DNA of 64,000 nucleotides from Staphylococcus phage vB_StaM_PB50: the sequence record OR770614.1. The stretch is one strand, 5' to 3'. Below the pieces are notes generated by a model. It was not told where the DNA came from, did not search any database, and saw only the letters and a list, made by a program, of their open reading frames with translations. Positions within the stretch are counted from its first letter, which is position 1. Every line of letters starts with the position of its first letter. Position numbers and translations under genes: made by a program. Positions 2,501-63,095 of the stretch are shown in pieces.

Positions 2501-3885
2501 ATAGGTCATTTACGTTAAACTGCATGGATTATCATGCAGATCAGACTATATCATAATTTTAATAATTTTTTCATAGGGATAATTAATTCTTCATTTATTC
2601 TATTCTGATAAGGGAGACGTATCATATTTATTCCTTTACTTCTTATAAATTTATCTTTTTCATTATCTAATTTTTTTATATCTTCAAGAGTTCTTGTGCG
2701 TTTATTTCTTTTATCATTAATAAAAGTTCCATAACCTTTTATATGTCCTTTTCCATCTACTTCAACTACAGTATTTATTTTTTTAAAATAAAAATCAAAT
2801 CTAAAACTAGATCCTTCAAAAGTAACTTCATTCTCATATTCTATATTATTCTCTTGAAGAAATTCAATAATGGCAATTTCTCCTATACTTTTAGAGCATA
2901 CACTACATCTTTTTCTTTTAAGTATATCATCTGGTCTTGTTTTAAATTTGTGTCCACAATCATTACTCTTCAAATAGATATAATCTTTGCTTCTAGTATA
3001 TTCAGTTAACACATTAAATTTATTATATCCAAATATCATATCTAATTCACCTTGAAACTCTTCTGTTGTCTTTTTAGATAATTCTTGACTATCTAATATG
3101 ATATAATTTTCATCATTTATACATCTATTACAGTTTACTGAATTATACTTCTTTCTTTTATCCATTAGAGTAGAAGGCTTTGCAAAATATCTTATATTTC
3201 CACATTTTCCACAACGGAATCTACACTTTTTATTCATTCCATTGAATCCTTCAATATAAGTATAATTAAATCCGAACTTATCTTTTAATTCTATTAAAAA
3301 AGTTTCTTTACCTTTAGAATTCTTGGGTTTTTCTGAATATCTACAATCTTTTCTATTACAGAATTTTCTCTTTAATCTTAATTTTTCAGTAGGTAAGAAA
3401 AAATCTCTATCACATATATTACAATGACATTTAATTGGTTCTTTAGAATTTTTATACTCTCCCAGTATTTCAAATTTATCTCCATTAATATCTTTTATTT
3501 CTTTAAAAGTTTTATTTCTCTGTTCTATGAATTTTTCTTTACTTTTAACACCTTTAGGCATTTTATCCCTCCGTTATCGTACTGATAAAAGAATGTTAAC
3601 AGTAAAAATTATTAAAATTGATTTTATTTAGTCGTTGAACACTAATTAAAGTGATGCTGATTAACTTCATTATTAGTCTTCCAGCAATTAAAAATCTTTA
3701 TGCACTGCATCTACATACGGTGCTACCTCTTCCTGCTTTGTTTGCCGTAATACATTGTATGATATTCATACACACTAGACTATATCTTATAATATTAATT
3801 ATCTCTATATTTAGTCGTTGAACAATCAATTTGATTGATGCTGATTGGTTTAGTATCTTTTTCAGCAGTTAATAGAGTTTAATGA
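2501..3885 (-). mobile_element. group I intron(s) in terL with two ribozyme core copies and a homing endonuclease ORF
   Basis: Core copy A (P,Q,R,S at ~3870-3775) then copy B (P,Q,R at ~3700-3620), ORF 3561-2551, then S element TATGATATAGTCTG and hairpin at ~2545-2505; either tandem introns or a twintron. Confidence 0.5.
2551..3561 (-). CDS. intron-encoded homing endonuclease, Cys-rich Zn-ribbon repeats + Vsr/DUF559-like PD-(D/E)xK domain
   Basis: 336 aa; repeated C..C...C..C/H modules; C-terminus TVVEVDGKGH...D..R...G..MIRLPY resembles EDxHD/Vsr-like nuclease (I-Bth0305I type); located inside intron. Confidence 0.5.
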   Translation of the reverse strand: MPKGVKSKEKFIEQRNKTFKEIKDINGDKFEILGEYKNSKEPIKCHCNICDRDFFLPTEKLRLKRKFCNRKDCRYSEKPKNSKGKETFLIELKDKFGFNYTYIEGFNGMNKKCRFRCGKCGNIRYFAKPSTLMDKRKKYNSVNCNRCINDENYIILDSQELSKKTTEEFQGELDMIFGYNKFNVLTEYTRSKDYIYLKSNDCGHKFKTRPDDILKRKRCSVCSKSIGEIAIIEFLQENNIEYENEVTFEGSSFRFDFYFKKINTVVEVDGKGHIKGYGTFINDKRNKRTRTLEDIKKLDNEKDKFIRSKGINMIRLPYQNRINEELIIPMKKLLKL

Positions 3886-4531
3886 GAGCACGTATTTTAC
3901 TCTCAGCATTTGTTGGAGGTGATACTGTTTTTATTGTGTTGTTATTACTTGCTAAAGAAAATTCATTAATTTTGTCTCTATCATTTTTATCACCAAAGTT
4001 AGCTAATACATAATCCGGTAAACATTTCTCTTTGAATAGATTTTTTAATCGTTTAAGGTTTTCAGTAGTGTCCGAGTACGATTTATGTGTAAATAACATT
4101 GTATAGTTATTACCTACCAATAACATAATCCATGAATAATAACATACTGCAGAATATGTTTTATAGTGCTGACGAGGTAACATTATTGCAGTATCTAAAT
4201 TATGCAACATACAAAAAGTCATAGCTAAATTACCTCTATGAAGTTCATACATTACTTTTCCACCCGGAACCGGAACTCTGATAACTTCTCTTAAATAAAA
4301 CCATATATTAAGTTTAGCTTCCCTAATAACACGTGTTTTCATTTCATTATCTAGATCTTCATCCCAAGGATCAACACCAATTAATTTCTTATCATATAGA
4401 GTTAATGGCAATCCATAATTTTGTATATTATTATCTTTAAGTTCTTTAGCAACTTTTAAAAAGCTTACATTATTAGTTTTATAATCGTAATAAATTTTTT
4501 TCTTTAATTTTGTTATAGCCATAGTCTTCAT
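3886..4531 (-). CDS. terL: terminase large subunit, 5' exon (Walker A ATPase region)
   Basis: ORF 3869-4531; LPRQHYKTYS Walker-A-like and alignment to T4 gp17 suggests exon ends near ...AESKIR (~3886), last ORF residues being intronic. Confidence 0.65.
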
Positions 4532-5730: not shown

Positions 5731-6846
5731 TTATATATCAGGATTGAAATTATCGGACAATTTCACTAATAATTTTATGTCATTTATAGTTTTTTTAATT
5801 TCTTTTTTGGTTTCGTTATCATTATTGTTATTACTTAATTCTTTTTCTAATATTCTTATATCACTTTCAACTATATCAGTTTCCCAATCTTTATAATCTC
5901 TTATAAAAAGCTTAATAGGATATAATATTTTATTTTTAATAGCATTAAACTTATTGTTCTTATAAGTAGGAGGTTTAAAACCATGAATTTTATCTATTTC
6001 TCTTACAATTATGGTTGTTTTAACTAATTCTCTAGAATATCCATAGAGTGTAGGTAAATAATCTGCAGTTCTCTCAACTAAATTATAATCTTTCTTGTCT
6101 TTATTATTTTTTACACTTCTATTTAAAAAGACAGAAGAAACTAATCCGGTTCCAATACCTATTGGAGCATTTACAATACTTAAAGATAAAAAGAAAATTG
6201 TCATCGCAGATACCATAGGAATTGCATACTTTTTATTTCTTCTTTCATCATCCTCAATATCTTTAGAATAAGAAAATATTTGAGGTGGGTTATTTTTATA
6301 TTTTAATTCAAATTTAGGAGTTTCTCCTTTATTTAATACATTCAATTCTAAAGGTAAGATTAAATTATGACCTATTTCATGTAATAAGACAGATGTTAAT
6401 AAACTACCATCAAATAAATTTTCAATTTTATTATTACTTTTTCTCAATAAAATACAGTATCTTATAAAATTCAATTCCATTTCAACTTTTATTTCAGTAG
6501 GTTTAGCATAATATATTCCATTTTTTTCTTCTGAAACTATTTTCAATAGACCTAAAGCTATATCTTTAGCTTGCTTTTCATTCCATTTAGTTTGTCCTAT
6601 AAAATTAGATGAATAAAACATTACATCATCTAAATCTAAGAAACTAAATTTTAATTTAGTGTTAAATAACTTATTACATAAATTCTCAATTTCTTTTTCT
6701 TTTTTGGTAAAATTAAAATTGACAAATTCTTCTTTATCTAAATCATATGAATCTATTAATTCATTAAATATTTTGTCAACATCTTTTAATGTATTTTTGT
6801 TTCTGCTATTTATAAACATGTCTTCTTTTAATAATATTTTAGTCAC
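5731..6846 (-). CDS. membrane HExxH zinc metallopeptidase-like protein, paralog B
   Basis: 371 aa; GTG start with AAAGTAGGTG RBS; LLHEIGHNLILP motif, DIEDD in place of EIEAD, hydrophobic helices. Confidence 0.4.
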   Translation of the reverse strand: MTKILLKEDMFINSRNKNTLKDVDKIFNELIDSYDLDKEEFVNFNFTKKEKEIENLCNKLFNTKLKFSFLDLDDVMFYSSNFIGQTKWNEKQAKDIALGLLKIVSEEKNGIYYAKPTEIKVEMELNFIRYCILLRKSNNKIENLFDGSLLTSVLLHEIGHNLILPLELNVLNKGETPKFELKYKNNPPQIFSYSKDIEDDERRNKKYAIPMVSAMTIFFLSLSIVNAPIGIGTGLVSSVFLNRSVKNNKDKKDYNLVERTADYLPTLYGYSRELVKTTIIVREIDKIHGFKPPTYKNNKFNAIKNKILYPIKLFIRDYKDWETDIVESDIRILEKELSNNNNDNETKKEIKKTINDIKLLVKLSDNFNPDI

Positions 6847-10709: not shown

Positions 10710-10876
10710 TTTAGGTTAAAATGGCTCACGTTAAATTATATTAATTGCTGAAATCTTATTTAAAGTAATCAGCATCAACTTAATACAAGTTGTTCAACGA
10801 CTAAATATATAACTTAATTTAATTAAGAAGATATAGTCTAATCTATATAAAATATAAATATAGATAATATAAGCAG
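10710..10876 (+). mobile_element. group I intron, ORF-less (~170 nt)
   Basis: P AATTGCTGAAA, Q AATCAGCATC, R GTTCAACGACTAAAT, S AAGATATAGTCTAA, P9 hairpin ATCTATAT...ATATAGAT, terminal G ~10876. Confidence 0.6.
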
Positions 10877-11139: not shown

Positions 11140-11322
11140 AAATAACTCTGTCGCTTCTTAAAGCAATTTAAGTCGAATAATATTATTAATTGCTGAAAAG
11201 AATTCATTAAATTAATCAGCATCCTCAAAAAGAGGTTCAACGACTAAATATAATATACTTAATTTATTAAGTAATGATATAGTCTAGTCTATATGAAATT
11301 CATATAGTTAATATAAACGTGG
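11140..11322 (+). mobile_element. group I intron, ORF-less (~180 nt)
   Basis: AATTGCTGAAAAG, AATCAGCATC, GTTCAACGACTAAAT, AATGATATAGTCTAG, hairpin CTATATGA...CATATAG; frame reopens at 11323. Confidence 0.55.
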
Positions 11323-21503: not shown

Positions 21504-24500
21504 TTGATTAGTATTCTAGATAAAGAACGTAAAAGAATTGAAGGTAAATTAGTTGCAGAAACTTTTGAAAATGTAATCTCTAGTGAGAAATTAGTATATG
21601 ATTTTAGTAAGAAAACTGAAATTATTGATATTGAATTCAAAAGTAAAAACTACATTTCAGAAAATACACATATAATTATTAAAGATGAAAGTAAGAATGA
21701 TTCTGAATTTGTTTGTATCGAAGAAAATGGTTTAAAATCTTCGTTAATTCCTGCTTATGTAAAAGATTTAAATAATGTCTTTATGAATTCTAATGAAGAA
21801 TTAAATGGACAATTAAAATCAGTATTAAGCACTTTATTATTGAATACAGGATATAATATTGAGTATAATGATTTAGTCGTTGATGAAGAAATTACTTTAT
21901 CTAAAAATAATAAATCTGTATTTGAAAAATTATTGGATATTGTATTTGAAAAAGATCTGTCTATTAGACATAAGTATGATATTAATACAAATGAAAGAAC
22001 TTTAATAATTAATAAAGGTAAAGATTTAAGAAAATCTAATCCTAAAGAAGTTTCTGGTAGAATTCCTGGTTTTGAATTTAATGTAGATAAATCAAATATT
22101 AAAACTGGTTTAATCATGTATAATGATAATAATGAATCTATTACTGTTAAAGACTCATTAAACCAAGCTAGATTTATTAAAGATGAAAATTATATATTTG
22201 ACACTATGGAAGTTAAAGGGAAAACTAGAGATGAAATGGAAGAGATTGCTTCTAAATACCTTAATGACAGTTCTTTGAATGCTATAGATTTAAAAATGAC
22301 TGGTTTAGTATTAAGAAATTGGACTAACTGTCATTATAATAAATTTATATCAAGTCAAATATTCATCAATTATAAAAATATAAAACCTGAGCTAACAGCA
22401 GGTTTCCAAATATATAAATTAGAGAGAAGTTTATTCGATTATAATATAGAGAAATTTAACTTCTTTGCTAAGCATAAAGATTCTAATGAAGTTTATAAAC
22501 CTGAAATGTTAGAGAATTATACTAAATACGCTAATGATAACATCTTTATTAAAGACAATACATCTTCTAAAAGTAATGATGTTAAATTAGTTGAATCTTT
22601 AGTTAATAAACAATTAGAGTCATTTAAAAATTATATTAATGATATTAGCAATAATAAAAATAGTGGTACAGATGGATCAAGTGTATTACAATCAAATAAA
22701 GAACTTAACTTTGATGCTATTATTTCTGATTTTAATTTAATTAAATCTCAAAAAGATCAAGTTGTTAACCAATTAAAATCTATATTTGATTCAGCTTATC
22801 TTAAAGAAGATGCAATTAAAATTCAGGTTAGAGATAAAATTAAAGAAATTAATAATGACTTTGATAAAATAAAATCTGAAGTCAATAAACTTAATAGAGC
22901 TGATCAGAATGAATCATTAATGAAAGATATTAATAAATCATTTGTAGGATTTTATTCTGTAGTTAATAGCACTAAAAGTATTATTGAATTATCTAATGAA
23001 GCTATTAACTTAGAAATGAATAAACTTCAAAATGAATATTCTCATGGTATTAAAGATACTGTATTTTCTGAAATTGGAAGAGTTTTAGGATTATCATATG
23101 ATAGTAAAACTCAAAAATTAACAGGAAATATCAATGTAACTGAGGATATCAATGAAGTAAAAACTTCTTTAGAATTAATGAGAGTAAAAGTTAATAGAAT
23201 TGAAAATGATCTTAATGACTCTGATAGAGGATTGAAAGAAAATTTAATTCGATTAACAGAAAATCTATCAAATGTACTAGGCTTACCTATTAACTCTGAA
23301 TCTGGTTTAATAGATGGAGCTATAGATAATCAAGATACGTTTGATCTTATCCAAAAACAGATTCAAAAAACTAAAGATGAAATTGCTGAATCTAAAGTTA
23401 ACTTAGAAAATACTAAAACAGAATTAGAAAAACAACAAGAAGAATTAGACCAAAAATCTAAAGATATAGATAAAGCTATGGCTGAAGCTAATAGGGTTAG
23501 AGAAGATTTAGGTCAAGAATTAGAAGTTTCTCAAAAAGAGTTTAATTACTATATGGATTCTCGTGGAGATAACTTAATTTTTAATGGTAATGCAGATCAA
23601 GGAGATGAATCAAATTTCCCTGGAATGTATTACGATAATTCAGATGCCTTTCAATCAGCAGCTTCATTTAGAATAGAAGGATTTAACTCTATTGTTTCTT
23701 CTGAAAGATTAATACCGATTAATCCAGAGAAGACATACAAACTTTCTATGTTTATGAAGAATAACAATTCTCTTCCTTCTTCTATAGGTCATTTAAGTTA
23801 TGATAAAGATGGACAATTAATAGAATCTCAACATGTAATGGGTAGTGAAAAACCTGTAATTGAATTAGCTCAAGAATTAAGACAAGGAGATAAAGTTATT
23901 TATTTCAATAGTCTTGATGGTCTTGATGATACTTATAGATTCCAGTCTGCTCCGTTAGATGAAGAAGATGACACTCCTGTTTATGATTATGATAGAGATG
24001 GATCAGTTGTATTACCTAGTGATGCAGATGATATTCTTTCTATAGATGATCCTAATGCCATTCCTGATGAAGAAGAAGACACTATAATATATGCAGAGGA
24101 CACGCCTGAAGAAGATAAAACTACAGAACCTGATGTTCCTATGCCTGATTCTGATGAGCCGGTTGAAACTAATTCAACTCCAGTAGATGAAGAAGAAGCT
24201 ATTAAGAATATGACTAATAATTATAATGTGTCTAATGCTGGAATTGTTAATAGAAATATTAATCCTAATTTAACGGATTATAACGATAATCATTCATTAG
24301 TTATTTGGAATTTCAAGAGTAATGATGGATATAATTATGGTGAATCTACTTATTCTAGAAATGTATTCATGAATGGTTGGGATTATGGTGCTATTGATAG
24401 AGAAAATAATTGTATTTATCTTAATAGACCTTTTGATTTAATTAATTATGATTCTGAAGATGGAGGTTTCCCTGCTGGAACTAAAGTTTCAGGAACATTC

Positions 24501-27500
24501 ACTGATAGTAATGTTGAATGGTCTTTAATTAAAGATGAAGATATCCCTAATGAAGATCAAGATGATGATCCTGAAGAATTTAATGGATGGTATCACCGTC
24601 AATCCTTAATAACTAAAGAAAATATTAGAGGTACTAATGGCTTCTTATATGGTGCTTTCTATATGACATTATACTTTAAAGTAAACCAAATAGAAGATTC
24701 GGATGTTATTGAATTTGAAGATGGATCTAGTGAGCCTAAATTTTGGTTAACTAATATGGAAATGTATGATGTTACAGGTTTAGAATCTGTTAAGAAAACT
24801 GTTATAGATACTAATGAATTAGTAGCTACTATGATGACTAAAAAAGAAATGGATGATTATCGTAAACAGGTAGTCGAAGGTTTCTCTGAAGTTAGTCAAA
24901 CTGTAGATATGATTCGTCAAGAAGTTTCTAAGAAAATAGAAGATTTAGATGATAAAGTAATGACAGATATTACATCCAGAATAGAAACTATAGCAGGACA
25001 GATAGATTTAGTTTCTGAATCACAAAAAGTTGATAAAGAAGAATTAGAAAAACAGATTGGTCAAATAAAAATTGAAACTGACAAAATTACATCATTGGTG
25101 CAAAGAATAGACACAGCTGAAGATAATTACAGTGATTTATCAACTAAAGTAGAACAGCTTGATAGCAGCTATACGATTACAGCAGAAAAGGTTGAAAAAC
25201 AGGGAACTGACATAACAGATCTTTCTGGAAAATTAACAGTTGCGAATAATGCTATAACTCAAGAAGTTAAAGATAGAAAATCTGCAGTTGATGATGCCAT
25301 TGAATCTTCTAAAGCATTAGTTAAAGTTGAAGCTGATAGAATTACTAATTTAGTATCCAAACAAGAATCTACGGATGATACAATATCTAATTTAGAAACT
25401 AGTATTACTGCTGAAATAGGTAAAATAGAAAATAAAGTCACTAATGAAACTAGTGTAGAAGCACTGTCTAATAAGATTAAAATTGGTGGAAATAATTTAT
25501 TAGTAGGTACTGAAAAATTTGATTTGCCTTTTAATAAGACAAGCTTCAGTAGATATGGTGGAATAATCAAAGATGGAATTGGATATTCACTAGATTATAA
25601 TACTGAATCTAACCGATTAGCATGGAGTATATTCCAGAACGTAGATGTAATTCCTAATACAGATTATGTATTAAGTTATAATGCACATAATAAAGAAGGA
25701 ATTACTCAAGGAATTGCATATACTCCTATAATGAGATTAACTGATGATGGTAAAATTTTCGATTCTTTAGAGTATATTATAACTAGTGATACTTATCGAG
25801 AAACTAAAGAAGATATTGACAATCGATATGTAGTTAAATTTAATACAGGTAAAAGTAGAAAAATAAGAATTTACTTTACCTCTAAAGATGTAGATAGTTT
25901 AGCTTACATTTCTAAACCTCAATTAGAATTAGGTAATATTGCTACCGATTGGGGTTTATCTAAGGGAGATCTTGAAGACAGATTTAACAAAGCTGAAACT
26001 AGAATTACTCAGACTGAAGAAGATATTACTCTAAACGCTACTAAATTAACCGAAACTGGTAATCTAATTGAAAAAAATTATTCTGAACTTAAAGTGGAAA
26101 CAGATAAAATTAGTAGTATTGTAAGTGAACAGAAAATATTAGATGATAAAATTTCCGCTAATACTTCTAGCATTAAACAGTTACCTAATCAAATTACTAG
26201 TCAAGTTTCTGCTGTAGAAAAAAGAGTTAATGAGAATATTAATAATATTCAAATTGGTGGAAGAAACTTATTATTGGATAGTTTGAATAAAACAATCTTT
26301 AAACCTAATAATAAAGGATTAGGAATTCCAACAAAAAATAGTGATAATTCTTGGAATTTAACTCCAGACTCAGATAAATCTATTAGTTCTTATTATTTTA
26401 TAAGAGATTCCAATTCAAATGACATAACTTCTGTTGAAATGAAAACTAATGTATGGTATACTTTTTCAATTGATTTAATATTACCTAAAGATTTAAAAGT
26501 TGAAATTGGAATTAATAGTGATGGTATATCCAGACCAGAAGGTATATCTTCTAAATACGATTATCATAATATTAAAGCCAATGAAAGAACAAGAATAGGT
26601 TTTACGTTTAAATGGATTGATAAAAATATAATTGAAAATATTCCAATTATAATACGTCTTAATGAAAGTAACTCTATTGGTATACCTATAATTTATGATA
26701 AAGCTAAATTAGAATATGGTAATAAAGCCACTGATTGGTCTCCAGCACCTGAAGATATTGAAACTAGATTAGTTGCAAGTGAAACTCGTATAACTCAAAC
26801 TGAGAAGGATATAAGTTTAAATGCTTCTTCTATTACGACATTAGATAATAAAACTACTAATCAATACAGTACACTTAAAGTTGAAACTGATAAAATTAGT
26901 GGTATTGTTAGTAAACAAGAAGAAATGGATGATAAAATTGCCACTAATACTTCTAGCATTAAACAGTTACCTAATCAAATAACATCACAAGTTTCTGCAG
27001 TAGAAAAAAGAGTTAATGAGAATATCAATAATATTCAAGTAGGTGGAAGAAACTTATTAGAAAACAGTTTATCTTGGAATAAAGGTTTTGAAGATAATTC
27101 AAATGGTTCCTATAAATATTTATGGAGAATTTATATTGATGAATTATTGAATAAAGTGGATATCGGAGATGAAATTTCTATATCATTTGATTTACAAATG
27201 GAACGTGGAGATGTTTTCAGAATATATGATAGTGTAGTAGATCCAGGAATGTCTATTGGTAGTGATACAATAACTAATGTTGGTAATAAAAAATTTAAAT
27301 ATAAATATACTTCTAAAATAACTAAGACTTCTGGAGATAACACTAGATGGGCTATATATGCTTATAATAATAATAATGGAGATAAATTCTCCATTGAAAA
27401 TATTAAAATAGAAAAAGGTAATAAAGCTACTGACTGGACACCTGCTCCTGAAGATATTGAGACTTCAATATCAACTGTATCTTCTAAAATAGATCAGAAA

Positions 27501-29849
27501 GCAGATTCTATTGAACTATCTGTTAATAAAATAAATAATTATCTTAATGCAGATAATACACTTATTAACTCTGATCTTAGAAATGGATGGGAAGGATGGA
27601 CAACAGTTGATGATGAAACGTCTAAAAATTTAAACTATGCTGAAGAAATAAATAGTGGTTATTGGATATTTACTAATTCAGGAGATGAAGTTGCGATAAC
27701 TGATAAAAATCTAACAGATAAAGATTATTTAACTTTAAGTGCAAATAATGAAGGATGGAAGCAGTGGCAACTTTCTGATGTTGATTATTCTGATGGTAAT
27801 GGAAGTCCTAAAATGTCTAAGATTAGTGCTGGAACATATACAATTAGCATGCAAATAAGAAAAGACGAAGGTAGTACAGGAAATTTCAACCCTTATATAA
27901 GAATAAATGGAGATTCTACTGTAGACCCAATAAAACTAGATATTGATGTCGATTCTGAAATTGATACTGATTGGAAGGAATTTACTGTAACAGGAAATAT
28001 AAGTTCTAGTGATCTAAAAAATAAGTATCGTATAAGACTTATTTTAGTATATACAACTGGTTCGGTAGGTAAAGTTTATGTAAGAAATGTAAGATTAGAT
28101 AAATCAAATTACCCTCAAAATCCTAGATTCTCAATAGCTCCCGAAGAAGATATGACATTTAATATCGATAACAACTTAGCTCTGGGGTCAGTTTATCGTT
28201 TAAACAATGTATCCAGAGGAACTTATAAAAGAATGACTCTTTTATTAAATGGATATTTAAAAAAGAATACTAAATATAAAGTTGCATTTGATTATAATAT
28301 ACAATCTGGAAAGAATAGTGAAGGTTTAATTTCATTATATCCATATAGATATCCTTATAAAGGTTCAGGGTACTCAACTGATGTGGATACATTACCTGAA
28401 ATTAGTTCAGTTAATAGATTAGATTATCCTGTTAGTGCGAATAAAAGAAACGTAATAGAGATTACTACTCCTAATGAAGATAAAATTAATCAGCTATTAT
28501 TTTATGGTGCAAAAGCAGGAACTACAGATAATTCTGAGATTGTGACTTCCTTTGAAAATATAGTTGTTAAAGAATCTAAAGATGTTTCTAATGATAGTGA
28601 TATGTCATATAATGCAAATGAAGTGAAAAATGTATTTAAGTATAAACAGAATACATTCGGCTCTAGGTGGCCTGCAATTACTTCTAGTTATATGCCGGTA
28701 GGACAAGATGGACAGTTTAACATTGGTGACTATGTAACAGGTTCTGTTTATATATACATTCCTGCAACTGCTAGAAAATATCTTAGTTATAAAATATATT
28801 TTGAAGTCGCTACTTACGAAAATACATCACAGACAGGAAATCCTAAATTTGGAGTTGTTGAAATACCTGCCAGTGAATTTGTTTTTGGCGAGTGGAAACG
28901 TTATAGTTTTACCGCCAAAATACCTAGAACTTCTGATAACGGACAAACTAATTATTTAAGATTCTTATTGCGTTATAATAATTATGACAAAGCTGATGTA
29001 TATAATGATGGAACTGTATTCTATTATGCAATTCCAAAATTAGAAAAAGGGGATCAATTAAAACCTTGGACACCATCACCTTTAGATAAATATAGTACTC
29101 AATCAATGTCTAGTAAAATTGCAATGAATTCTGAAGCTATTAAAATGATATCTAGGAATATAGATTTAAATACGGATAAAGTTAGAATATATAATGATAA
29201 AGGTAATATGGTGTTTACTAATGATGTATTAAGAATATCAAAGACTGCTTTAGATACTGATAATTTTGTAGAGATCAATTCAAAAGGATTAAATATTAGA
29301 AAAAATGGCGTTGACCAAGCTGTAGATGGAAAGTTTAAAGGTGAGTCTAACGTTCAGCAAACTATACCTATGGGTAGAAGTTTTAATCCACCTGGTCCCA
29401 ATAAATTGGACGGTCTTTATCATGTACAAGAAATAGCAGGAGCATACTATCTTGATGCAGAAATGTATAGTTATGCTGCTAAGAAAAAGCATTTAACTGA
29501 AGGTGGAGGTGCTTATAATGCATTACTAGGTTCATTTTCATTTTATCATGATAAAAGATACTTAGTAATGAGTTTTACCTACGATACATCTAAAAATGCA
29601 AATTTATATGTTACAGTGGCTGCAGGAGTTGGATGGAAAACTGATTCAAAAACAGCTTTGTATTTTGATAAAAAATATACTTCAGAATCTAAAGGAATAA
29701 TCTCTGAATATATAGATTTAGGTACTCCTAATAACTATAATAAAACATTAGTAATACAATTAGGTATAACAGGAACCTCTAAAGAAGGCGAAGGTGGATC
29801 AATAACTATTAAACGTCTATCATTAAGTAACTTTAACTCCCCTTCATAA
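21504..29849 (+). CDS. giant tail fibre / host-adhesion protein (2781 aa)
   Basis: TTG start with GGAAGGATGGTG RBS; long coiled-coil stretches; four modules ending GN(K/I)ATDW(S/T)PAPEDIE typical of phage fibre carbohydrate-binding modules; internal DNA repeats. Confidence 0.6.
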   Translation: MISILDKERKRIEGKLVAETFENVISSEKLVYDFSKKTEIIDIEFKSKNYISENTHIIIKDESKNDSEFVCIEENGLKSSLIPAYVKDLNNVFMNSNEELNGQLKSVLSTLLLNTGYNIEYNDLVVDEEITLSKNNKSVFEKLLDIVFEKDLSIRHKYDINTNERTLIINKGKDLRKSNPKEVSGRIPGFEFNVDKSNIKTGLIMYNDNNESITVKDSLNQARFIKDENYIFDTMEVKGKTRDEMEEIASKYLNDSSLNAIDLKMTGLVLRNWTNCHYNKFISSQIFINYKNIKPELTAGFQIYKLERSLFDYNIEKFNFFAKHKDSNEVYKPEMLENYTKYANDNIFIKDNTSSKSNDVKLVESLVNKQLESFKNYINDISNNKNSGTDGSSVLQSNKELNFDAIISDFNLIKSQKDQVVNQLKSIFDSAYLKEDAIKIQVRDKIKEINNDFDKIKSEVNKLNRADQNESLMKDINKSFVGFYSVVNSTKSIIELSNEAINLEMNKLQNEYSHGIKDTVFSEIGRVLGLSYDSKTQKLTGNINVTEDINEVKTSLELMRVKVNRIENDLNDSDRGLKENLIRLTENLSNVLGLPINSESGLIDGAIDNQDTFDLIQKQIQKTKDEIAESKVNLENTKTELEKQQEELDQKSKDIDKAMAEANRVREDLGQELEVSQKEFNYYMDSRGDNLIFNGNADQGDESNFPGMYYDNSDAFQSAASFRIEGFNSIVSSERLIPINPEKTYKLSMFMKNNNSLPSSIGHLSYDKDGQLIESQHVMGSEKPVIELAQELRQGDKVIYFNSLDGLDDTYRFQSAPLDEEDDTPVYDYDRDGSVVLPSDADDILSIDDPNAIPDEEEDTIIYAEDTPEEDKTTEPDVPMPDSDEPVETNSTPVDEEEAIKNMTNNYNVSNAGIVNRNINPNLTDYNDNHSLVIWNFKSNDGYNYGESTYSRNVFMNGWDYGAIDRENNCIYLNRPFDLINYDSEDGGFPAGTKVSGTFTDSNVEWSLIKDEDIPNEDQDDDPEEFNGWYHRQSLITKENIRGTNGFLYGAFYMTLYFKVNQIEDSDVIEFEDGSSEPKFWLTNMEMYDVTGLESVKKTVIDTNELVATMMTKKEMDDYRKQVVEGFSEVSQTVDMIRQEVSKKIEDLDDKVMTDITSRIETIAGQIDLVSESQKVDKEELEKQIGQIKIETDKITSLVQRIDTAEDNYSDLSTKVEQLDSSYTITAEKVEKQGTDITDLSGKLTVANNAITQEVKDRKSAVDDAIESSKALVKVEADRITNLVSKQESTDDTISNLETSITAEIGKIENKVTNETSVEALSNKIKIGGNNLLVGTEKFDLPFNKTSFSRYGGIIKDGIGYSLDYNTESNRLAWSIFQNVDVIPNTDYVLSYNAHNKEGITQGIAYTPIMRLTDDGKIFDSLEYIITSDTYRETKEDIDNRYVVKFNTGKSRKIRIYFTSKDVDSLAYISKPQLELGNIATDWGLSKGDLEDRFNKAETRITQTEEDITLNATKLTETGNLIEKNYSELKVETDKISSIVSEQKILDDKISANTSSIKQLPNQITSQVSAVEKRVNENINNIQIGGRNLLLDSLNKTIFKPNNKGLGIPTKNSDNSWNLTPDSDKSISSYYFIRDSNSNDITSVEMKTNVWYTFSIDLILPKDLKVEIGINSDGISRPEGISSKYDYHNIKANERTRIGFTFKWIDKNIIENIPIIIRLNESNSIGIPIIYDKAKLEYGNKATDWSPAPEDIETRLVASETRITQTEKDISLNASSITTLDNKTTNQYSTLKVETDKISGIVSKQEEMDDKIATNTSSIKQLPNQITSQVSAVEKRVNENINNIQVGGRNLLENSLSWNKGFEDNSNGSYKYLWRIYIDELLNKVDIGDEISISFDLQMERGDVFRIYDSVVDPGMSIGSDTITNVGNKKFKYKYTSKITKTSGDNTRWAIYAYNNNNGDKFSIENIKIEKGNKATDWTPAPEDIETSISTVSSKIDQKADSIELSVNKINNYLNADNTLINSDLRNGWEGWTTVDDETSKNLNYAEEINSGYWIFTNSGDEVAITDKNLTDKDYLTLSANNEGWKQWQLSDVDYSDGNGSPKMSKISAGTYTISMQIRKDEGSTGNFNPYIRINGDSTVDPIKLDIDVDSEIDTDWKEFTVTGNISSSDLKNKYRIRLILVYTTGSVGKVYVRNVRLDKSNYPQNPRFSIAPEEDMTFNIDNNLALGSVYRLNNVSRGTYKRMTLLLNGYLKKNTKYKVAFDYNIQSGKNSEGLISLYPYRYPYKGSGYSTDVDTLPEISSVNRLDYPVSANKRNVIEITTPNEDKINQLLFYGAKAGTTDNSEIVTSFENIVVKESKDVSNDSDMSYNANEVKNVFKYKQNTFGSRWPAITSSYMPVGQDGQFNIGDYVTGSVYIYIPATARKYLSYKIYFEVATYENTSQTGNPKFGVVEIPASEFVFGEWKRYSFTAKIPRTSDNGQTNYLRFLLRYNNYDKADVYNDGTVFYYAIPKLEKGDQLKPWTPSPLDKYSTQSMSSKIAMNSEAIKMISRNIDLNTDKVRIYNDKGNMVFTNDVLRISKTALDTDNFVEINSKGLNIRKNGVDQAVDGKFKGESNVQQTIPMGRSFNPPGPNKLDGLYHVQEIAGAYYLDAEMYSYAAKKKHLTEGGGAYNALLGSFSFYHDKRYLVMSFTYDTSKNANLYVTVAAGVGWKTDSKTALYFDKKYTSESKGIISEYIDLGTPNNYNKTLVIQLGITGTSKEGEGGSITIKRLSLSNFNSPS
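26095..26285 (+). repeat. intragenic direct repeat, copy 1
   Basis: ~190 bp, >90% identical to 26875-27065 over its core (CTAATACTTCTAGCATTAAACAGTTACCTAATCAAAT...GGTGGAAGAAACTTATTA). Confidence 0.7.
26875..27065 (+). repeat. intragenic direct repeat, copy 2
   Basis: Pairs with 26095-26285; encodes KVETDKISxIVSxQ...TNTSSIKQLPNQITSQVSAVEKRVNENINNIQ. Confidence 0.7.
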
Positions 29850-29861
29850 AACATATTTATA
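29850..29861 (+). promoter_or_regulatory. AACA-N6-TA motif
   Basis: AACATATTTATA 35 nt upstream of ATG 29896. Confidence 0.3.
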
Positions 29862-29895
29862 TAATTTATATAAATACGAAGGGAAGTTTTATTTT

Positions 29896-30255
29896 ATGAT
29901 AAAATCAAATGGTATTGTTCCTGTTTTTGATACAAAATATGATACGACTGGAAATTTAATTTCAGGGAGAATGTCTCTTGTTATTGATACGGATCAAATA
30001 GAGACAAATGGTGAATTTAATGAATATAAGGCAGGTCAAGTATTTTCTTCTGGTCCTTCTATAGTATTTATTATAGATAAGAATACTTATAATCAAATTG
30101 AAAAATTAAAAATTGCTTTTATAGATGGATTACCTAATCTAGTTGTAAAAGACGAAGAAGAATTTGAAGAAATTGAAGATCAAGAAACTCCTGAAGAAAA
30201 AGAAATTCGTGAATTACAAGAAAAATTAGCTGCTTTAATGGCTGGTAGAAAATAA
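29896..30255 (+). CDS. hypothetical protein (fibre module)
   Basis: 119 aa ORF after fibre gene. Confidence 0.4.
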   Translation: MIKSNGIVPVFDTKYDTTGNLISGRMSLVIDTDQIETNGEFNEYKAGQVFSSGPSIVFIIDKNTYNQIEKLKIAFIDGLPNLVVKDEEEFEEIEDQETPEEKEIRELQEKLAALMAGRK

Positions 30256-30274
30256 TTTAGGAGGAATTTTAATT

Positions 30275-30748
30275 ATGAATTTAACTAAAAAATCTTTTAT
30301 TGTAACATTCCATGCTACTTTAGTAGCTAAAGGTGTGTTAGAATTAGAAGAAGTATCTGAAGGTAATGAATTAAAATCATTAGTTGAAGAAGTTTTAAAT
30401 GAAGTTGGTTTTGGAGAAGTAACAGAATCATCTGAATCTTATGATCCTTATGATAGCAGTGGTCCTGTTAAAATGTATGGACCGGGAAGTAATGGAGTTT
30501 GGGTAACTTCATCTACTGAACAACCTTTAGAAAAACCTAATTATGAATACTCTGATGCTGAACCGGTTCCTTCAAAACCTGAAAATACACCTGTTGAAGC
30601 TGAGATCGATCCGATTGACGAAGAACATCGTGTAGAAGGTTTTAATGAAGATTCAGAAGTTCAAGGTATTGGTAGAGCTACTGAAGTTGAACCTCAAGAA
30701 GATTCTGAAAATGCAGATTCTGCTCGTGGAGGAATTTTACCTCAATAA
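30275..30748 (+). CDS. hypothetical acidic protein
   Basis: 157 aa ORF, RBS AGGAGGAA. Confidence 0.4.
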   Translation: MNLTKKSFIVTFHATLVAKGVLELEEVSEGNELKSLVEEVLNEVGFGEVTESSESYDPYDSSGPVKMYGPGSNGVWVTSSTEQPLEKPNYEYSDAEPVPSKPENTPVEAEIDPIDEEHRVEGFNEDSEVQGIGRATEVEPQEDSENADSARGGILPQ

Positions 30749-57729: not shown

Positions 57730-57748
57730 TTATATTTATTTAATTTTC

Positions 57749-57943
57749 TTATCTATTTTTCTGACACTGTTTAGCTAATTCCCTCATCACCTTTGTTCTC
57801 TTTGCCCCTTTCTTTGCTACTGCTCTATTTCTCTTGTAATTTCTCACCATTTGATTTAGAATTTCTCTCATCTTTATCTTCTCCTTTATATAATAATAAG
57901 AATAACGATCTAATAAGACCGTTATTCTAAAAAATCTATTCAC
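57749..57943 (-). CDS. small basic protein
   Basis: 64 aa, K/R-rich; 8-nt overlap with RNAP beta-prime exon 2. Confidence 0.3.
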   Translation of the reverse strand: MNRFFRITVLLDRYSYYYIKEKIKMREILNQMVRNYKRNRAVAKKGAKRTKVMRELAKQCQKNR

Positions 57944-58133
57944 TAGCTTTAATATCTACATTTTTTGATTTAGGATTATTTAATAAATAAACAGCTATTT
58001 GTGAGTCTTTATTAAGTGAGTAAGTTCTATTAAACAATCCATCATTATATGAAATTAATTGGTTTACTGGATCTTGTACTTTTAATTGTTCGTATTGTTC
58101 TTCTGAAAATAGTGCTATGATATTTAAAGTATC
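57936..58133 (-). CDS. RNA polymerase beta-prime-like N-terminal fragment, exon 2
   Basis: DTLNIIALFSEEQYEQLKVQDPVNQLISYNDG aligns with beta-prime [33 protein letters not shown] directly after NADFDGD; begins right after intron terminal G at 58134. Confidence 0.55.
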   Translation of the reverse strand, partial: DTLNIIALFSEEQYEQLKVQDPVNQLISYNDGLFNRTYSLNKDSQIAVYLLNNPKSKNVDIKASE

Positions 58134-59861
58134 CATTTATCTTAACCTACATTTAATATATAGGATGAGACTATATCTTATGGTTTCCCATTTATATATT
58201 TAGTCGTTGAACCTTATAATTAGGATGCTGATTAGTTTCAAACTGTCCCAGCAATTAATATGATTTATTGAAGGCAATAAATCAATAAATTTTATAATTC
58301 ATTAAAATATTTCCGCTATTCCAAATTCGATAAACACCCGATTGTTTTTTAGGAAAATCTGAGTATTCCATGTTTTCATTAATGTAATTTGGAAAGTATT
58401 CTGGTATAATAGATTTTTCAAATTCATGAACTGAATAAATATTTCTTTTAAAAATTATTTTACATGTAGATTTTAATTCTTTAACATAATTAAAACCAAA
58501 ATCTTTGAAATATTTACCATCAGAATAATCTTTATTTATTATTAAATCTATTGTTTTTATATTGTTTCTTTTGAAATATTTAATTGAATTACTTAATAAT
58601 TTAAATAAACCACCATTTACAATTGTTTTATTACTAAAAGCAAATTTTTCTAATTTAACTTTATTCTTATTTATATAATTATATGACATAATTGCAATTA
58701 TTTCATCATTAATTTTTAATGAAAAATTAATATCATGAGAGGAATTTATATAGGTACTATTATTTTTATAGAAGTTTTTAGCGTCATAATCGTTAATTAT
58801 TTCAAAATTACATTCTCTAGCATTTATTTTCTTTTCTTGAAAATAATCTATAGAATACAATATCCTATTAATTATTAAATCTTTTTTAAACTCGTAATCT
58901 AATGAGTTAATAAAATATATTTCAATATCAAAATTATTTTTAAAAAAATCTTTCTTATGTTTATGATATTCTTTATTTTTCATTTTATCTGAATGATAAT
59001 AGTATCCATTAAATTCAAATCCTATTTTTTTATCTGGAAAGAATAGATCTACTTCATATATTTGATCATTAAAAGAGAATCTTTTGTTATTTAAAATAAT
59101 TCCTTTATATGATTCTTTTATATATTTTATTAATTCAATTTCTTGATTAGATTTAATATTTTTACAAAGAGGACATCTATATCCTTGTTGAAAGTCATTA
59201 ACTCTTACACTATAAATATTACCACATTTTTTATGTTTTATTGGATATTTTTCTTTATTATTGAATTTATAATTTAAATCCAACCATTCATATTCATTAC
59301 CATCTTTAGATTCAGATAATATTTTTATTAAATAATTTTCATCATCTTTATAATAATATTTACCTCTTTTTTTATTTGAACAAAAAGGACATCTTCTTTT
59401 CTTATTTCCCAAAAATAAGCGTGGTTCTACTTTATATTCATTTCCGCATATTTCATGTCTTAATAAAACTTTATCGCTACCATTTTTATTAAAACCTTCT
59501 ATATAAGTATAATCTTTATTTTCTTTTTTAATTTCTTCAAAAAAGTCTTTATCCGATATATTTTTATAATTTCTAGCTTTTTTATTCCCTTCATTTTTAA
59601 AACATTTCGGACATCTTCCTTTTCCTTCATTTAAGAAAATATTACCTTTAGATACTCTATATTCTTCACCACAAATTTTATGTTTTAAAATAAAAGGCTT
59701 TGAAGTTCCCTCATAATTGCTTATTAATTCATAATTATTATTATCTATATTTTTTATTTTGTTTATTACATCTTCTTCTGTTAATTTAGGTGGCATAAAC
59801 TCATCCTTTCAATTAATTATTAAGGAGGTTTATTTAAATTTATTTTTTATTGATAATTTTT
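58134..59861 (-). mobile_element. group I intron with homing endonuclease gene, inserted in beta-prime catalytic motif
   Basis: 5' splice after ...GADYDG (U at 59862); ORF 59796-58282; then P AATTGCTGGGAC, Q AATCAGCATCC, R GTTCAACGACTAAAT, S AAGATATAGTCTC and terminal G. Confidence 0.6.
58282..59796 (-). CDS. intron-encoded endonuclease (Zn-ribbon repeats + DUF559/Vsr-like domain + C-terminal extension)
   Basis: 504 aa; repeated C..C/H..C..C modules as in terL intron ORF; YEVDLFFPDKKIGFEFNGYYYHS nuclease-like segment. Confidence 0.5.
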   Translation of the reverse strand: MPPKLTEEDVINKIKNIDNNNYELISNYEGTSKPFILKHKICGEEYRVSKGNIFLNEGKGRCPKCFKNEGNKKARNYKNISDKDFFEEIKKENKDYTYIEGFNKNGSDKVLLRHEICGNEYKVEPRLFLGNKKRRCPFCSNKKRGKYYYKDDENYLIKILSESKDGNEYEWLDLNYKFNNKEKYPIKHKKCGNIYSVRVNDFQQGYRCPLCKNIKSNQEIELIKYIKESYKGIILNNKRFSFNDQIYEVDLFFPDKKIGFEFNGYYYHSDKMKNKEYHKHKKDFFKNNFDIEIYFINSLDYEFKKDLIINRILYSIDYFQEKKINARECNFEIINDYDAKNFYKNNSTYINSSHDINFSLKINDEIIAIMSYNYINKNKVKLEKFAFSNKTIVNGGLFKLLSNSIKYFKRNNIKTIDLIINKDYSDGKYFKDFGFNYVKELKSTCKIIFKRNIYSVHEFEKSIIPEYFPNYINENMEYSDFPKKQSGVYRIWNSGNILMNYKIY

Positions 59862-60974
59862 ACCATCATAGTCTGCACCCATACCAGCAAGTATATTATT
59901 ACTGATACCTACTACTGATGATTCTATATCTTGAATTATATCTTTAATTTTTAATATTTGAACTGAGCTTTCACTAATACTGGGATTTCTATTTAAAATA
60001 ACTCTCATTCCATTTTCAGTTTTATCAACTAGTTCTCTCATATATTTATATACTTTAGGATTAAATGTATCTAATGCTCTGTCTAATATTTCTTCACCTT
60101 TAGCTAAAGGAATATTTTCTGTTACATACATTAAATTTGCTAAGATAGGTTTATATACTTCTAAGAAGATGGTATAATTTAATCTAATTTCATTTAATTT
60201 AAGGTCAGGTGCTGGAACAATTACTGAACGTGCAGAGAAACCAACACGACTACCCATTAGTAATTTACGAATAGTTCCACCTTTACCTTTAATATTCTCA
60301 TTAATTACACGATCACTAATATTAATACTATCATCTTGAATTTTACTTAATAGATTTAATTTTTGTAACTCTACTGAATCATCTGTATAATGTCTATCAA
60401 GTTCTTTAATACTATTACTATGAGCAATTAATAAATTATAATCTTTATTAATTTCAGAATGTCTAAAAGTTTTAGTAGCTTTATTAACTGTAGCAGGTCT
60501 TAATTTAGGACTAAATACAGTTACATAATTTTGGAATAGTAAATCAGATAAATACCATTGTACTACTCTATTGTAATCTTTAGTTTTACGTTTTTCACGT
60601 TTAACTTCTTCTTTAAGAATTTTTAAGAAATTCTTTCTAAATTCAATTAAACCAATATAAGAGTTATGATCATCTTCAGGTTCAATTACATTACCATTTT
60701 CATCAATAGGTTTTTCAGAACTAATAATTTCTTGGAATCTTTTATTACCAATTAATTTTTTAACACGTTCATAACCTAACGGATTTAAAATATAATTATT
60801 ACCTAAATCTACAATAGCTTCATTAGTAATATTATCTGCTTCTGAATCAGGACCGAAGATTTTCTCACTGAAGATACCATCTTCAGTGAAATCACCTTTC
60901 TTATCAATTGATTCATGATTAGTTACAACTGGAACATTTTCTAAATCCTTTTTCTTGAGTAAAAATCTAACCAT
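59862..60974 (-). CDS. RNA polymerase beta-prime-like N-terminal fragment, exon 1
   Basis: GKGGTIRKLLMGSRVGFSARSVIVPAPDLKLNEIRL matches beta-prime [24 protein letters not shown]; ends ...NILAGMGADYDG (NADFDGD). Confidence 0.65.
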
Positions 60975-60977
60975 AAC

Positions 60978-62600
60978 TTAATCTTCTCCTTCTTCTACAA
61001 TTTCTTTAATGTCCATAATAACTTCCTGATCATCATTTTCTTTCTCTAATTTATCAATATTTTCAATATCTTCAATTTCTTTGATATTAGGTTTATTTTC
61101 AAAATAGAATGAACCATTCTCACCAGGATCTTTAACTTCACAGAATGGAGTTAACGTACGAGTAATACCTGGATTATTTGATGAAGTAGCAATCAAATCA
61201 ATTCTACCGAAATAAGTGTTATTGATATTGATTGTTCTAATAGATGGTTTACTAGTGTCTACAGCTGATTGTGGACCTGCTTTAGTCATTTTAAGAATTC
61301 TAGTAAATAAATCAATTGTATTAACTGCATTAGAATAACGTATACCATCAGAAGTTCCAATAGTTTTCAATAGATAATCTCTAGGTACTCCTGAGAATAA
61401 ACCTTTAAGGTTTTTAATAGTACGTTTTTTATCTGAGAAGTTAATCATACGGTAAGATGTATCAGAATTTTTTCTATTCAGTGGATAAGTTAAGTATTCT
61501 AATACTCTTAATCGTTTATTAGCTAAATCTGTATTATCTAATAAGTTAAGATTATCAAAGTTCTTAAACATGTATTTAACCACATGATAAGTTGATTCTT
61601 TATCTTCTTTTTCTAATCGTGATATAGCTTGAGTACGACTATCTAATATACGATCAAATGAAAGTATCATTGAATTCGCTTTATCTATTTTAGTGTCAAT
61701 ATTAGTTGAACCACTGAAGATAGAACCTAAAGCCTTTAACCAGAATTCTCTATCGTATATTTTATCTAATCCAGCTCTCATTCCTTTGAATAAATCTTTA
61801 ATACAAAGGATCATAGAATTTCTATAACGATCATCAACATCTAACCATTCTTTTTCAACTTTTAAAGAAAGTTTATTATTAATTTTAAAGTAATAGTAAT
61901 TATCTTCTTTATCATCATTAATATCTATTACTTCACAATGGTCTTTAATTTCTAAAAATTCAAATGTTTCGTCAAATCCCATTTTTGCAACAAAGAACAT
62001 AAATGCTGGAACACTCTTATTTTTATTGAACACTTCTAGATATAGAGTTCTCCCTCTTTGGAAATTAGACATCTTATTATCGTCATCCATAATAGTGTCT
62101 TTTTTAGAACCATTGACTGATAGTGGTTGCAATAAGTTTTTCATTACTACAGTACTAGCTTTTGGTTTATAAAATTCAGCATCAGCTAATTGTAGAATTG
62201 GGAAAAATTTGTTATTATTGATATAGTAGTATTGACCTTCAATAAGTTCAGGGAAATCTAATTTGTGTGTATATTCTTCTTTATTACCTTCTGAATCTTC
62301 AAATTCTACTGTAATTTGAACTTCCAGTAATTTAGATTCTTCAACATTGATTTTTCTATAATCTTTAGATTTAAGTTGTTTATCTGTCATTTGATTATAT
62401 TCATAAACCTGACTTGGTGAAACAACTTTACAATCTAAGAATTTAATTCCTTTAATAAATTCTACTGATCGATAAATATCTGAAATGATTTTTTCTAAAC
62501 TTTCATTTTGTCTGAAATAAATTACGTCTTCGTTAAATGGTTCTTTTTTGCTAATGTCTTCGTTGATGTTCTTTGTAACTTTACTTAAGTATTTACTCAA
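60978..62600 (-). CDS. RNA polymerase beta-like N-terminal fragment
   Basis: 540 aa; KAGPQSAV...YFGRIDLIATSSNNPGITRTL parallels beta SALGPGGL...HYGRVCPIETPEGPNIGLI; GQYYYINNNKFFPILQL resembles GxFIINGxERVxxSQL. Confidence 0.55.
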   Translation of the reverse strand: MSKYLSKVTKNINEDISKKEPFNEDVIYFRQNESLEKIISDIYRSVEFIKGIKFLDCKVVSPSQVYEYNQMTDKQLKSKDYRKINVEESKLLEVQITVEFEDSEGNKEEYTHKLDFPELIEGQYYYINNNKFFPILQLADAEFYKPKASTVVMKNLLQPLSVNGSKKDTIMDDDNKMSNFQRGRTLYLEVFNKNKSVPAFMFFVAKMGFDETFEFLEIKDHCEVIDINDDKEDNYYYFKINNKLSLKVEKEWLDVDDRYRNSMILCIKDLFKGMRAGLDKIYDREFWLKALGSIFSGSTNIDTKIDKANSMILSFDRILDSRTQAISRLEKEDKESTYHVVKYMFKNFDNLNLLDNTDLANKRLRVLEYLTYPLNRKNSDTSYRMINFSDKKRTIKNLKGLFSGVPRDYLLKTIGTSDGIRYSNAVNTIDLFTRILKMTKAGPQSAVDTSKPSIRTININNTYFGRIDLIATSSNNPGITRTLTPFCEVKDPGENGSFYFENKPNIKEIEDIENIDKLEKENDDQEVIMDIKEIVEEGED

Positions 62601-62701: not shown

Positions 62702-62783
62702 TCATAAAACTTAGAAAAAAGCTAGGAAAATAATTAAATTTTTCTAAATTTTTTAAAAATAAATGAAAGAAAGGAAACTAAAA

Positions 62784-63095
62784 ATGAATAGACAAATTCA
62801 AGATCAAAAACATTTCTTCCGTGAATGGTCTAAACGAACTGGTTTATCTCAAAGAGAATTAGTAGATGCTTATTCAGAAATGATTGATATTTTAGTTGAA
62901 TCAGCTAATGATTCAGATCAAACTAAAACTATTATTCCTGAAATCGGTGTTTTAGAAGTTAAACCTGAAGATATGCGTAAACGTAGAAATCCAAGAACTA
63001 ATCAAATTGTAGTTACTGAACCTACACGTAAAGCACACATTCGTTTATACCCTAGACTTAAAAATAGATTTAAACCGGATGAATTAGAGAAATAA
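62784..63095 (+). CDS. HU/IHF-family DNA-binding protein
   Basis: Start at MNRQIQ (AAAGGAAA RBS); IGVLEVKPEDMRKRRNPRTNQIVVTEPTRKAHI matches HU beta-arm R-NP-T pattern. Confidence 0.55.
   Translation: MNRQIQDQKHFFREWSKRTGLSQRELVDAYSEMIDILVESANDSDQTKTIIPEIGVLEVKPEDMRKRRNPRTNQIVVTEPTRKAHIRLYPRLKNRFKPDELEK

Follow-up and report, generated by a model that had tools for sequence, protein, structure and literature searches.

A probable group I intron at the catalytic motif of a split, AR9-type RNA polymerase gene in Staphylococcus phage vB_StaM_PB50

The closest described system is the non-virion RNA polymerase (nvRNAP) of the jumbo phages AR9 and PBS1. It consists of gp105 (beta-N), gp089 (beta-C), gp270 (beta-prime-N), gp154 (beta-prime-C), and gp226, and its structure has been solved (PDB entries 7S00, 7S01, 7UM0, and 7UM1). 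A five-subunit nvRNAP and intron-disrupted genes have been described in AR9 and MarsHill-like phages (PMC9209446, PMC7598289, bioRxiv 10.1101/2020.12.14.422802). Within this set of papers, the one on MarsHill, Madawaska, and Machias reports all five subunits in these phages, with RNA polymerase (RNAP) genes that are disrupted by introns in a variable manner. In a second system, the endonuclease encoded by an intron in an RNAP gene of phiPA3 interferes with phiKZ (Birkholz et al., as reviewed in PMC12908238). Here, we analyzed a stretch of 64,000 nucleotides (nt), hereafter the window, from Staphylococcus phage vB_StaM_PB50 (PB50; sequence record OR770614.1), in which two consecutive genes on the minus strand resemble gp105 and gp270. 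We propose, with a probability of roughly 93%, that the region encodes beta-N (a gp105 homologue) and beta-prime-N (a gp270 homologue), i.e. two of the five subunits of an AR9-type nvRNAP, and that a mobile group I intron interrupts the beta-prime-N gene.

The polymerase itself is already known, and nothing about the enzyme is new, because its genes are annotated in GenBank for PB50 and described for MarsHill, Madawaska, and Machias, and because the AR9 structure has been solved. What is new is small: the exact structure of the intron, a micro-exon arrangement in the phages Machias and AH12, an endonuclease lineage that recurs with beta-prime genes, and several annotation errors. Both the polymerase genes and the interruption of one of them by an intron are in line with expectation for phages of this kind. 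A literature search found no paper on PB50.

RNA polymerase genes of PB50

The first gene (60978-62600, minus strand) has a TTG start, encodes a beta-N protein of 540 amino acids (aa), and is separated by 3 nt from the beta-prime-N gene. An initial annotation, made from the sequence alone, had placed both open reading frames (ORFs) correctly to the base and had read them as beta and beta-prime halves. As assessed by plain phmmer, beta-N matches only one distinct sequence in the PDB, the AR9 nvRNAP chain 7S00_c, which is labelled 'DNA-directed RNA polymerase beta subunit' (E 6e-73, residues 18-516). It shares 33% identity with AR9 g105 over 503 aligned columns in BLASTP and matches PHROG 2943 (5.6e-41); a search against Pfam alone gave no match. 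When a family profile of 36 aligned homologues was searched against the PDB, AR9 came first (1.4e-159), followed by S. aureus beta (8x6f_C, 2.4e-4) and cyanobacterial beta (5.7e-4). The alignment of this profile to bacterial beta spans FP...INGxxxxxxxQL and GPGGLT...VRDxHxSHxGRxCPxETPEGPNxGL. Indeed, KAGPQSAV and YFGRIDLIATSSNNPGITRTL, two segments of beta-N that had initially been singled out as fork-like motifs, align with bacterial fork loop 2 (GPGGLT) and HYGRxCPxETPEGPNIGL, respectively, GPQS and GRxDLxATS..PG of the beta-N family standing opposite GPGGL and GRxCPxETPEGPN.

The predicted structure agrees with these alignments. An AlphaFold2 model of beta-N, built from the 36-sequence alignment (predicted local distance difference test score 81, predicted template modeling score 0.81), has as its top Foldseek match the same AR9 chain, 7s00_c (template modeling score, TM, 0.80/0.89, E 1e-36), then phiKZ nvRNAP chain E (9rjs_E), and then bacterial beta and eukaryotic Rpb2. 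Beta-N has the fold of the N-terminal half of the second-largest RNAP subunit, with fork-loop and GR..ETPEG-type motifs. Its GenBank entry (WPH64177.1, identical to the 540-aa protein) is named 'non-viral RNA polymerase beta-prime subunit', whereas homology and fold say beta. The double-psi beta-barrel of beta lies in its C-terminal half and is therefore not expected in the beta-N gene, so the initial suggestion that both products should show this architecture does not apply to beta-N.

The second gene consists of two exons. Exon 1 (59862-60974, minus strand) has 371 codons and ends in ...GMGADYDG, its last codon being GGT. Exon 2 (57936-58133, minus strand) has 65 codons and a stop, and its first codon, GAT, encodes the third catalytic Asp. 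Joining them restores GADYDG|D and yields a 436-aa protein with GADYDGDTLNIIALF. The spliced protein matches AR9 chain 7S01_d (E 1.8e-70, residues 18-424 onto 21-426), with about 37% identity to AR9 gp270, and bacterial beta-prime (about 1e-13) over a region that includes NADFDGD. Exon 1 alone scores above the cut-off for PF00623 (33.4 bits, cut-off 25.3, E 6.7e-8) and matches PHROG 2987 (3.4e-44), and exon 2 aligns with the C-terminal part of gp270 in 7S01_d. The beta-prime motifs named in the initial annotation are present, as SARSVIVPAP and ADYDGD, but the residue preceding the latter is Gly and not the Asn that had been proposed. Because it can be aligned to solved structures, beta-prime-N is predicted to comprise the double-psi beta-barrel region with the three-Asp Mg loop (DxDGD) and to end shortly after it, which fits the architecture expected at the outset. 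Both proteins end where their AR9 counterparts end, in keeping with their having been called subunit halves.

Which of the two polymerases of such phages is encoded here has to be considered, since jumbo phages of the same clade encode both a non-virion set and a virion-packaged set for early genes, each with split beta and beta-prime. It is extremely unlikely that the two PB50 genes belong to the virion-packaged set. Their best AR9 matches, g105 and g270, carry nvRNAP annotations and are chains of the solved nvRNAP structure, which argues for the non-virion set. In addition, the residues past the catalytic motif (DYDGDTLNIIALF) resemble those of g270 (DYDGDVLNIIPVF) and not those of the AR9 virion beta-prime-N, g145 (DYDGDTVSLRG), and in the annotation of Machias these genes are non-virion, with a piece of a virion beta-prime gene located elsewhere. 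Taken together, these findings confirm the published view that a split multisubunit RNAP independent of sigma is encoded by AR9-like jumbo phages, those infecting Staphylococcus among them, and they bear out the initial assignment of PB50 to the AR9/PBS1 type, as a low-GC (guanine plus cytosine), intron-rich jumbo phage of Staphylococcus.

By analogy with AR9, beta-N and beta-prime-N would join beta-C, beta-prime-C, and a gp226-like specificity (sigma-like) subunit, all encoded elsewhere in the genome, and the assembled enzyme would transcribe late genes from uracil-containing phage DNA, reading the template strand. Two sets of observations weigh against extending the analogy this far. The first is that homologues of beta-C, beta-prime-C, and gp226 are not seen within the 64-kb window. 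In tblastn searches of the window, AR9 beta-C (g089) and beta-prime-C (g154) gave best E values of 1.5-9, compared with 1.3e-74 for g105 as a control; the Machias annotation of the matching 63 kb lists no other RNAP gene; and PHROG scans of the large unannotated ORFs of the window revealed no RNAP gene. This is what the initial annotation had predicted in placing the C-terminal halves outside the window. The second concerns the residues R363, K375, and N382 of AR9 gp105, which belong to the pocket for the template-strand -10U (PMC9209446). Although R384 of beta-N, which is nearly invariant in the family, aligns with R363, the other two residues are not conserved at the positions aligned by BLASTP, where N382 is replaced by G404 and K375 is paired with N397. 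A lysine, K396, is adjacent to the latter, and a reading of K375 as conserved gave way to the BLASTP pairing. The promoter specificity of the PB50 enzyme therefore stays presumptive.

Splice junction and intron core

The junction between the two exons is fixed by a natural empty-site comparator, a 3116-bp metagenome contig (ENA ERZ28634078 scaffold_21843; locus L009) that carries an intronless allele encoding an identical 436-aa protein. This locus is 98.8% identical to PB50, and in the beta-prime-N gene the 16 differences in 1311 nt are all synonymous; the 40-aa ORF downstream and the neighbours are the same as well. It aligns with window positions 61101-59863 and then 58133-56243, leaving 59862 as the lone unaligned base. 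The alignment thus breaks at 59862|58133, and the insert is exactly 58134-59861 (minus strand), i.e. 1728 nt between the Gly codon and the final Asp codon of DYDGD. This supports the exon boundaries given in the initial annotation. The intronless site reads GACTATGATGGCGATACTTTAAAT (L009 or MarsHill). At the junction, the codon is GGC in the intronless allele and GGT in the interrupted one, so the U needed by a group I 5' splice site is present; exon 1 ends in U, and the last base of the intron is G (...AAATG). Uninterrupted genes of 1311 nt also occur in phages PALS_2, SA1, and MarsHill, with the same local protein sequence as spliced PB50, and the spliced reconstructions have this length in all seven phages compared.

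The databases list the gene in pieces. The exon-1 reading frame extends four codons (KNYQ) into the intron before a stop, giving an unspliced ORF (59847-60974, minus strand) of 375 aa (WPH64176.1) that contains SARSVIVPAP and terminates in ...GADYDGKNYQ. Exon 2 is annotated by NCBI as a stand-alone 66-aa protein (WPH64174.1), corresponding to a small ORF (57936-58136) that starts M-DTLNIIALF. Since the unspliced ORF lacks the third catalytic Asp, the enzyme depends on splicing of the intron, which would restore this aspartate and the last 65 residues of beta-prime-N.

The insert contains elements of a group I core. Exact R (GTTCAACGACTAAAT, 58198-58212, minus strand) and S (GATATAGTCT, 58168-58177, minus strand) elements, both of the classical group I type, are found near its 3' end. 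When 13 cores from the window, Machias, AH12, and LY01 were aligned, they folded into P4/5, P6, P7, P8, and P9, with 12 predicted pairs that keep pairing through two-sided changes and with covariation in P6, P8, and P9. The PB50 core is 62-73% identical to every other member of this family. The R element occurs in six exact copies in the window (2338-2352, 3626-3640, and 3809-3823 on the minus strand, 10792-10806 and 11235-11249 on the plus strand, and 58198-58212 on the minus strand), of which the large terminase gene holds three, the prohead protease gene two, and beta-prime-N one. These mark six introns of one compact group I family. The intron load cited in the initial annotation in favor of an AR9-like phage is therefore real, and its estimate of ~25% GC is refined to 18-30% along the length of the window. 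In the intron at 3626, the S element lies ~1.1 kb downstream (2543-2552), and a 336-aa endonuclease-like ORF (2551-3561, PHROG 559) sits in the apparent P8 loop.

Against the assignment to group I stands the outcome of the Rfam searches. No family reaches the gathering threshold anywhere in the window, and nothing useful emerged when a 2.1-kb region was searched by E-value; only short sub-regions produced matches to RF00028, all sub-threshold. For the 3' 180 nt of the PB50 intron, the whole model matches at 58146-58289 with 21.8 bits (E 7.8e-4), and the two ORF-less introns of Machias score 38.8 and 20.2 bits, all below the gathering score of 50 bits. This lack of a match at threshold, and the listing of the pieces as separate coding sequences (CDSs) in GenBank, would fit an insert that is not spliced, i.e. 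an endonuclease cassette that disrupts the gene, leaving 375-aa and 66-aa pieces that act separately or a dead gene. We regard this as very unlikely. Such a product would lack the third catalytic Asp; the insert has core elements with covariation and the expected U and G at exon and intron ends; its removal yields an ORF identical to the intronless allele; the corresponding site of AR9 also holds an intron, across which the CDS is annotated as joined; and the gene is 99% conserved with relatives, with only synonymous differences from the intronless allele. The 1728-nt insert is thus best regarded as a putative self-splicing group I intron.

Candidate guide sequence and endonuclease

The intron contains an ORF of 504 aa (58282-59796, minus strand) with its own Shine-Dalgarno sequence (GAAAGGATGAG), and its product has the same sequence (100% identity) as the NCBI entry 'homing endonuclease [vB_StaM_PB50]', which comes from a 273,701-bp contig. 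It displays three treble-clef zinc fingers, a Vsr/PD-(D/E)xK-like core, and a C-terminal domain, and it matches PHROG 559 (3.8e-60), PHROG 3339 (homing endonuclease, 2.6e-23), and PF14311 (Pfam DUF4379, 1.1e-6); its homologues carry PF14311 and PF10881. In an alignment with AR9 g146 and metagenomic homologues, E248, D250, E261, H268, and K281 are kept and invariant, in a Vsr/PD-(D/E)xK-like pattern. The best relative in the phage collection is g146 of AR9/PBS1, a 'Hef-like homing endonuclease' (30% identity), and a sequence search of the PDB found no solved relative; contigs were also queried with the exact endonuclease sequence, which gave no match. Closer homologues (37-39% identity) are encoded in metagenomic jumbo-phage contigs of up to 271 kb (L010-L013), always together with a beta-prime gene of the DFDGD type. 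In two of the four (L011 and L012), the homologue is located inside an intron at DFDG|D, and in the other two (L010 and L013) it is a stand-alone gene that immediately follows a complete gene of the beta-prime-N type. The putative PB50 endonuclease presumably cuts intronless alleles of co-infecting relatives, thereby spreading the intron by repair. The circumstantial signs of this are that two loci otherwise 98.8% identical differ in having the intron, and that homologues recur in or beside DFDGD-type beta-prime genes.

A candidate internal guide sequence, GCCUUC (58270-58275, minus strand), is found 6 nt past the stop codon of the endonuclease. It could pair with the end of exon 1 (GAUGGU), with a U.G pair at the splice site. 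The duplex energy is -5.4 kcal/mol, compared with -2.7 for the 5' leader, and the 65 nt ahead of the endonuclease ORF contain no convincing guide sequence. In homologous introns, too, a guide directly follows the ORF stop: L011 has GCCAUCGAA (9-bp P1), L012 has GCCAUCA (7-bp P1), and the AR9 g145 intron has GUCGUAGU, placed in the same way after the g146 ORF. If GCCUUC is the guide, as we infer, its position past the endonuclease stop puts the endonuclease ORF in the P1 loop.

Three points weigh against this assignment. The proposed P1 (GCCUUC/GAUGGU) has one internal mismatch, the count of complementary bases alone does not single out GCCUUC, and the 5' splice site could instead be paired within a local hairpin, UGAUGGU/AUUAUCA. 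P1 could then be local, formed with the first 11 bases of the intron (UGAUGGU/AAAA/AUUAUCA), the guide would not be GCCUUC, and the endonuclease ORF would lie in a later loop. Although the minimum-energy fold of the 5' junction does contain this 7-bp hairpin, we consider a local P1 rather unlikely. It would place a U-A pair at the splice site, whereas group I introns normally have a U.G wobble there, and its fold z-score is only -1.5. The three homologous introns with the same endonuclease family have clear post-ORF guides with U.G, and only ~10 nt separate GCCUUC from P3. The post-ORF GCCUUC thus remains the preferred candidate for the guide. In the intron leader (59790-59830, minus strand), a CCUCCUU motif can pair with the Shine-Dalgarno and start region of the endonuclease (AAGGAUGAG). 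This pairing could limit translation of the endonuclease from the precursor RNA, although the fold is not significant (z -1.5).

Intron states among relatives and known systems

In the searchable phage collection, the genomes closest to the window are those of Machias and AH12 (96-99% nucleotide identity), followed by PALS_2, S6, UFV_DC4, LY01, SA1, MarsHill, and Madawaska (82-85%). The gene pair, its order, and its neighbours, with a primase downstream, are the same in all nine. Their beta-N proteins are 83-99.6% identical to that of PB50, and the genes are annotated as 'non-viral RNA polymerase beta / beta-prime subunit, N-terminal'.

The introns differ. The catalytic motif is intronless in PALS_2, S6, and UFV_DC4, each of which gives a single uninterrupted tblastn match, and in SA1, MarsHill, and Madawaska. 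LY01 is also intronless at DYDGD, its nucleotide sequence there being equal to spliced Machias, but it has one ORF-less intron of the same family at another conserved beta-prime motif (ILNR|NPSIS, ~2767-3008 of locus L005). Machias and AH12, which are otherwise 99% identical to the window in the beta-prime-N gene, have a 6-nt micro-exon flanked by two ORF-less introns that belong to the same family, in the arrangement GGT|i1|GCCGAT|i2|TATGATGGT... (4061-4422 of Machias locus L001 and the equivalent of AH12 locus L002). The micro-exon, GCCGAT, encodes Ala-Asp, and the sequence that follows the second intron reads TATGATGGTGATACT... Their GenBank CDSs end inside intron 1, unjoined; once spliced, they encode 436 aa with the same motif. 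PB50 has a single, endonuclease-bearing intron 9 nt further downstream. The idea that it is a shifted copy of the second Machias intron was dropped, since pairwise comparison puts its core at 67-73% identity to each member of the family and reveals no particular kinship with the Machias introns.

Three mutually exclusive intron states are found within 15 nt of the catalytic motif in nearly identical genomes: empty (L009), double and ORF-less (Machias and AH12), and endonuclease-bearing (PB50). It is possible, although we put this forward tentatively and think it unlikely on balance, that the 15-nt stretch coding for ADYDGD is a homing site over which co-circulating Staphylococcus jumbo phages compete. 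The PB50 endonuclease could then be an interference weapon against intronless relatives, by analogy with phiPA3 and phiKZ, and the double intron of Machias and AH12 could make these phages immune by abolishing the target site. On this reading, the stand-alone genes of L010 and L013 and the intron-borne form might also represent consecutive steps by which a mobile intron is put together. The three configurations at one active-site motif, in phages that are 97-99% identical, amount to a small natural model of homing, target-site immunity, and intron-mediated competition between phages. Because Staphylococcus jumbo phages can transfer S. aureus plasmids by transduction and have been considered for therapeutic use, knowing which of their essential genes need splicing has some applied relevance. 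The GenBank records could also be corrected, as beta-prime-N is deposited as unjoined fragments for PB50, Machias, and AH12, and PB50 beta-N is called beta-prime.

Around these genes, several other features were observed. A terminator-like hairpin with a T-rich tail (57899-57928, minus strand), predicted by a consensus scan only, is located directly 3' of the exon-2 stop. Next to exon 2, 198 nt (57739-57936) with a small basic ORF (probably 40 aa, MREILNQ...) stand in place of ~640 nt in Machias and AH12, which hold a gene for a hypothetical protein of 191 aa (Machias CDS_003). This protein, encoded beside the double-intron allele, was considered as a free-standing endonuclease and discarded, since it has no significant Pfam or PHROG match and one weak sub-threshold Pfam hit. 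The AR9/MarsHill early-promoter motif (AATATATATTAT / TATATTAT) was not found upstream of beta-N, and a sigma-70 promoter scan was uninformative in this AT-rich DNA (54 sites against 44 expected). The window as a whole is collinear with Machias from ~63,147 down to 1, wrapping past the start of that record. At the megablast level, alignment with Machias fails mainly at the large tail-fibre gene (25295-30540; ORF 21504-29849), which suggests variation in host range between otherwise near-identical phages. A 371-aa ORF (5731-6846, minus strand) with no Pfam or PHROG match lies within a 1.1-kb segment that Machias lacks, a short way downstream of the region of the major head gene.

Compared with known systems, the PB50 locus is closest to AR9. 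The two phages share full-length homology of both proteins, the split points of the subunits, the DYDGD loop, and a genome low in GC and rich in introns. As read directly from the DNA, the AR9 g270 gene, a joined CDS, is interrupted by an intron at precisely the same DYDG|D position; a tblastn reading that placed it ~9 codons downstream was ruled out in this way. The two introns differ in that the one in AR9 encodes an HNH endonuclease in another loop, whereas the PB50 enzyme is Hef-like and its ORF precedes the putative guide. The beta-N and beta-prime-N genes are ~140 kb apart in AR9 and adjacent in PB50, and the host of PB50 is Staphylococcus. An HU-like gene is found near beta-N in both phages: in AR9 it is g103, two genes upstream of g105, and in PB50 a gene for an HU/IHF-like DNA-binding protein (62763-63095, plus strand; PF00216, 2.4e-8) is divergent from beta-N. 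The AR9 g145/g146 intron shares with that of PB50 the endonuclease family, an ORF between the 5' splice site and the guide, and insertion in the DxDGD codons. Unlike in PB50, however, it interrupts the virion beta-prime-N paralogue, one codon upstream (DYD|GD), and its core is larger. As in PB50, an intron of phiPA3 encodes a homing endonuclease within an RNAP gene of a jumbo phage, and related co-infecting phages have intronless alleles. PhiPA3 is, however, a nucleus-forming member of the Chimalliviridae, the gene targeted is that of the virion RNAP, and its endonuclease reportedly belongs to the HNH family, unlike the Hef-like enzyme of PB50.

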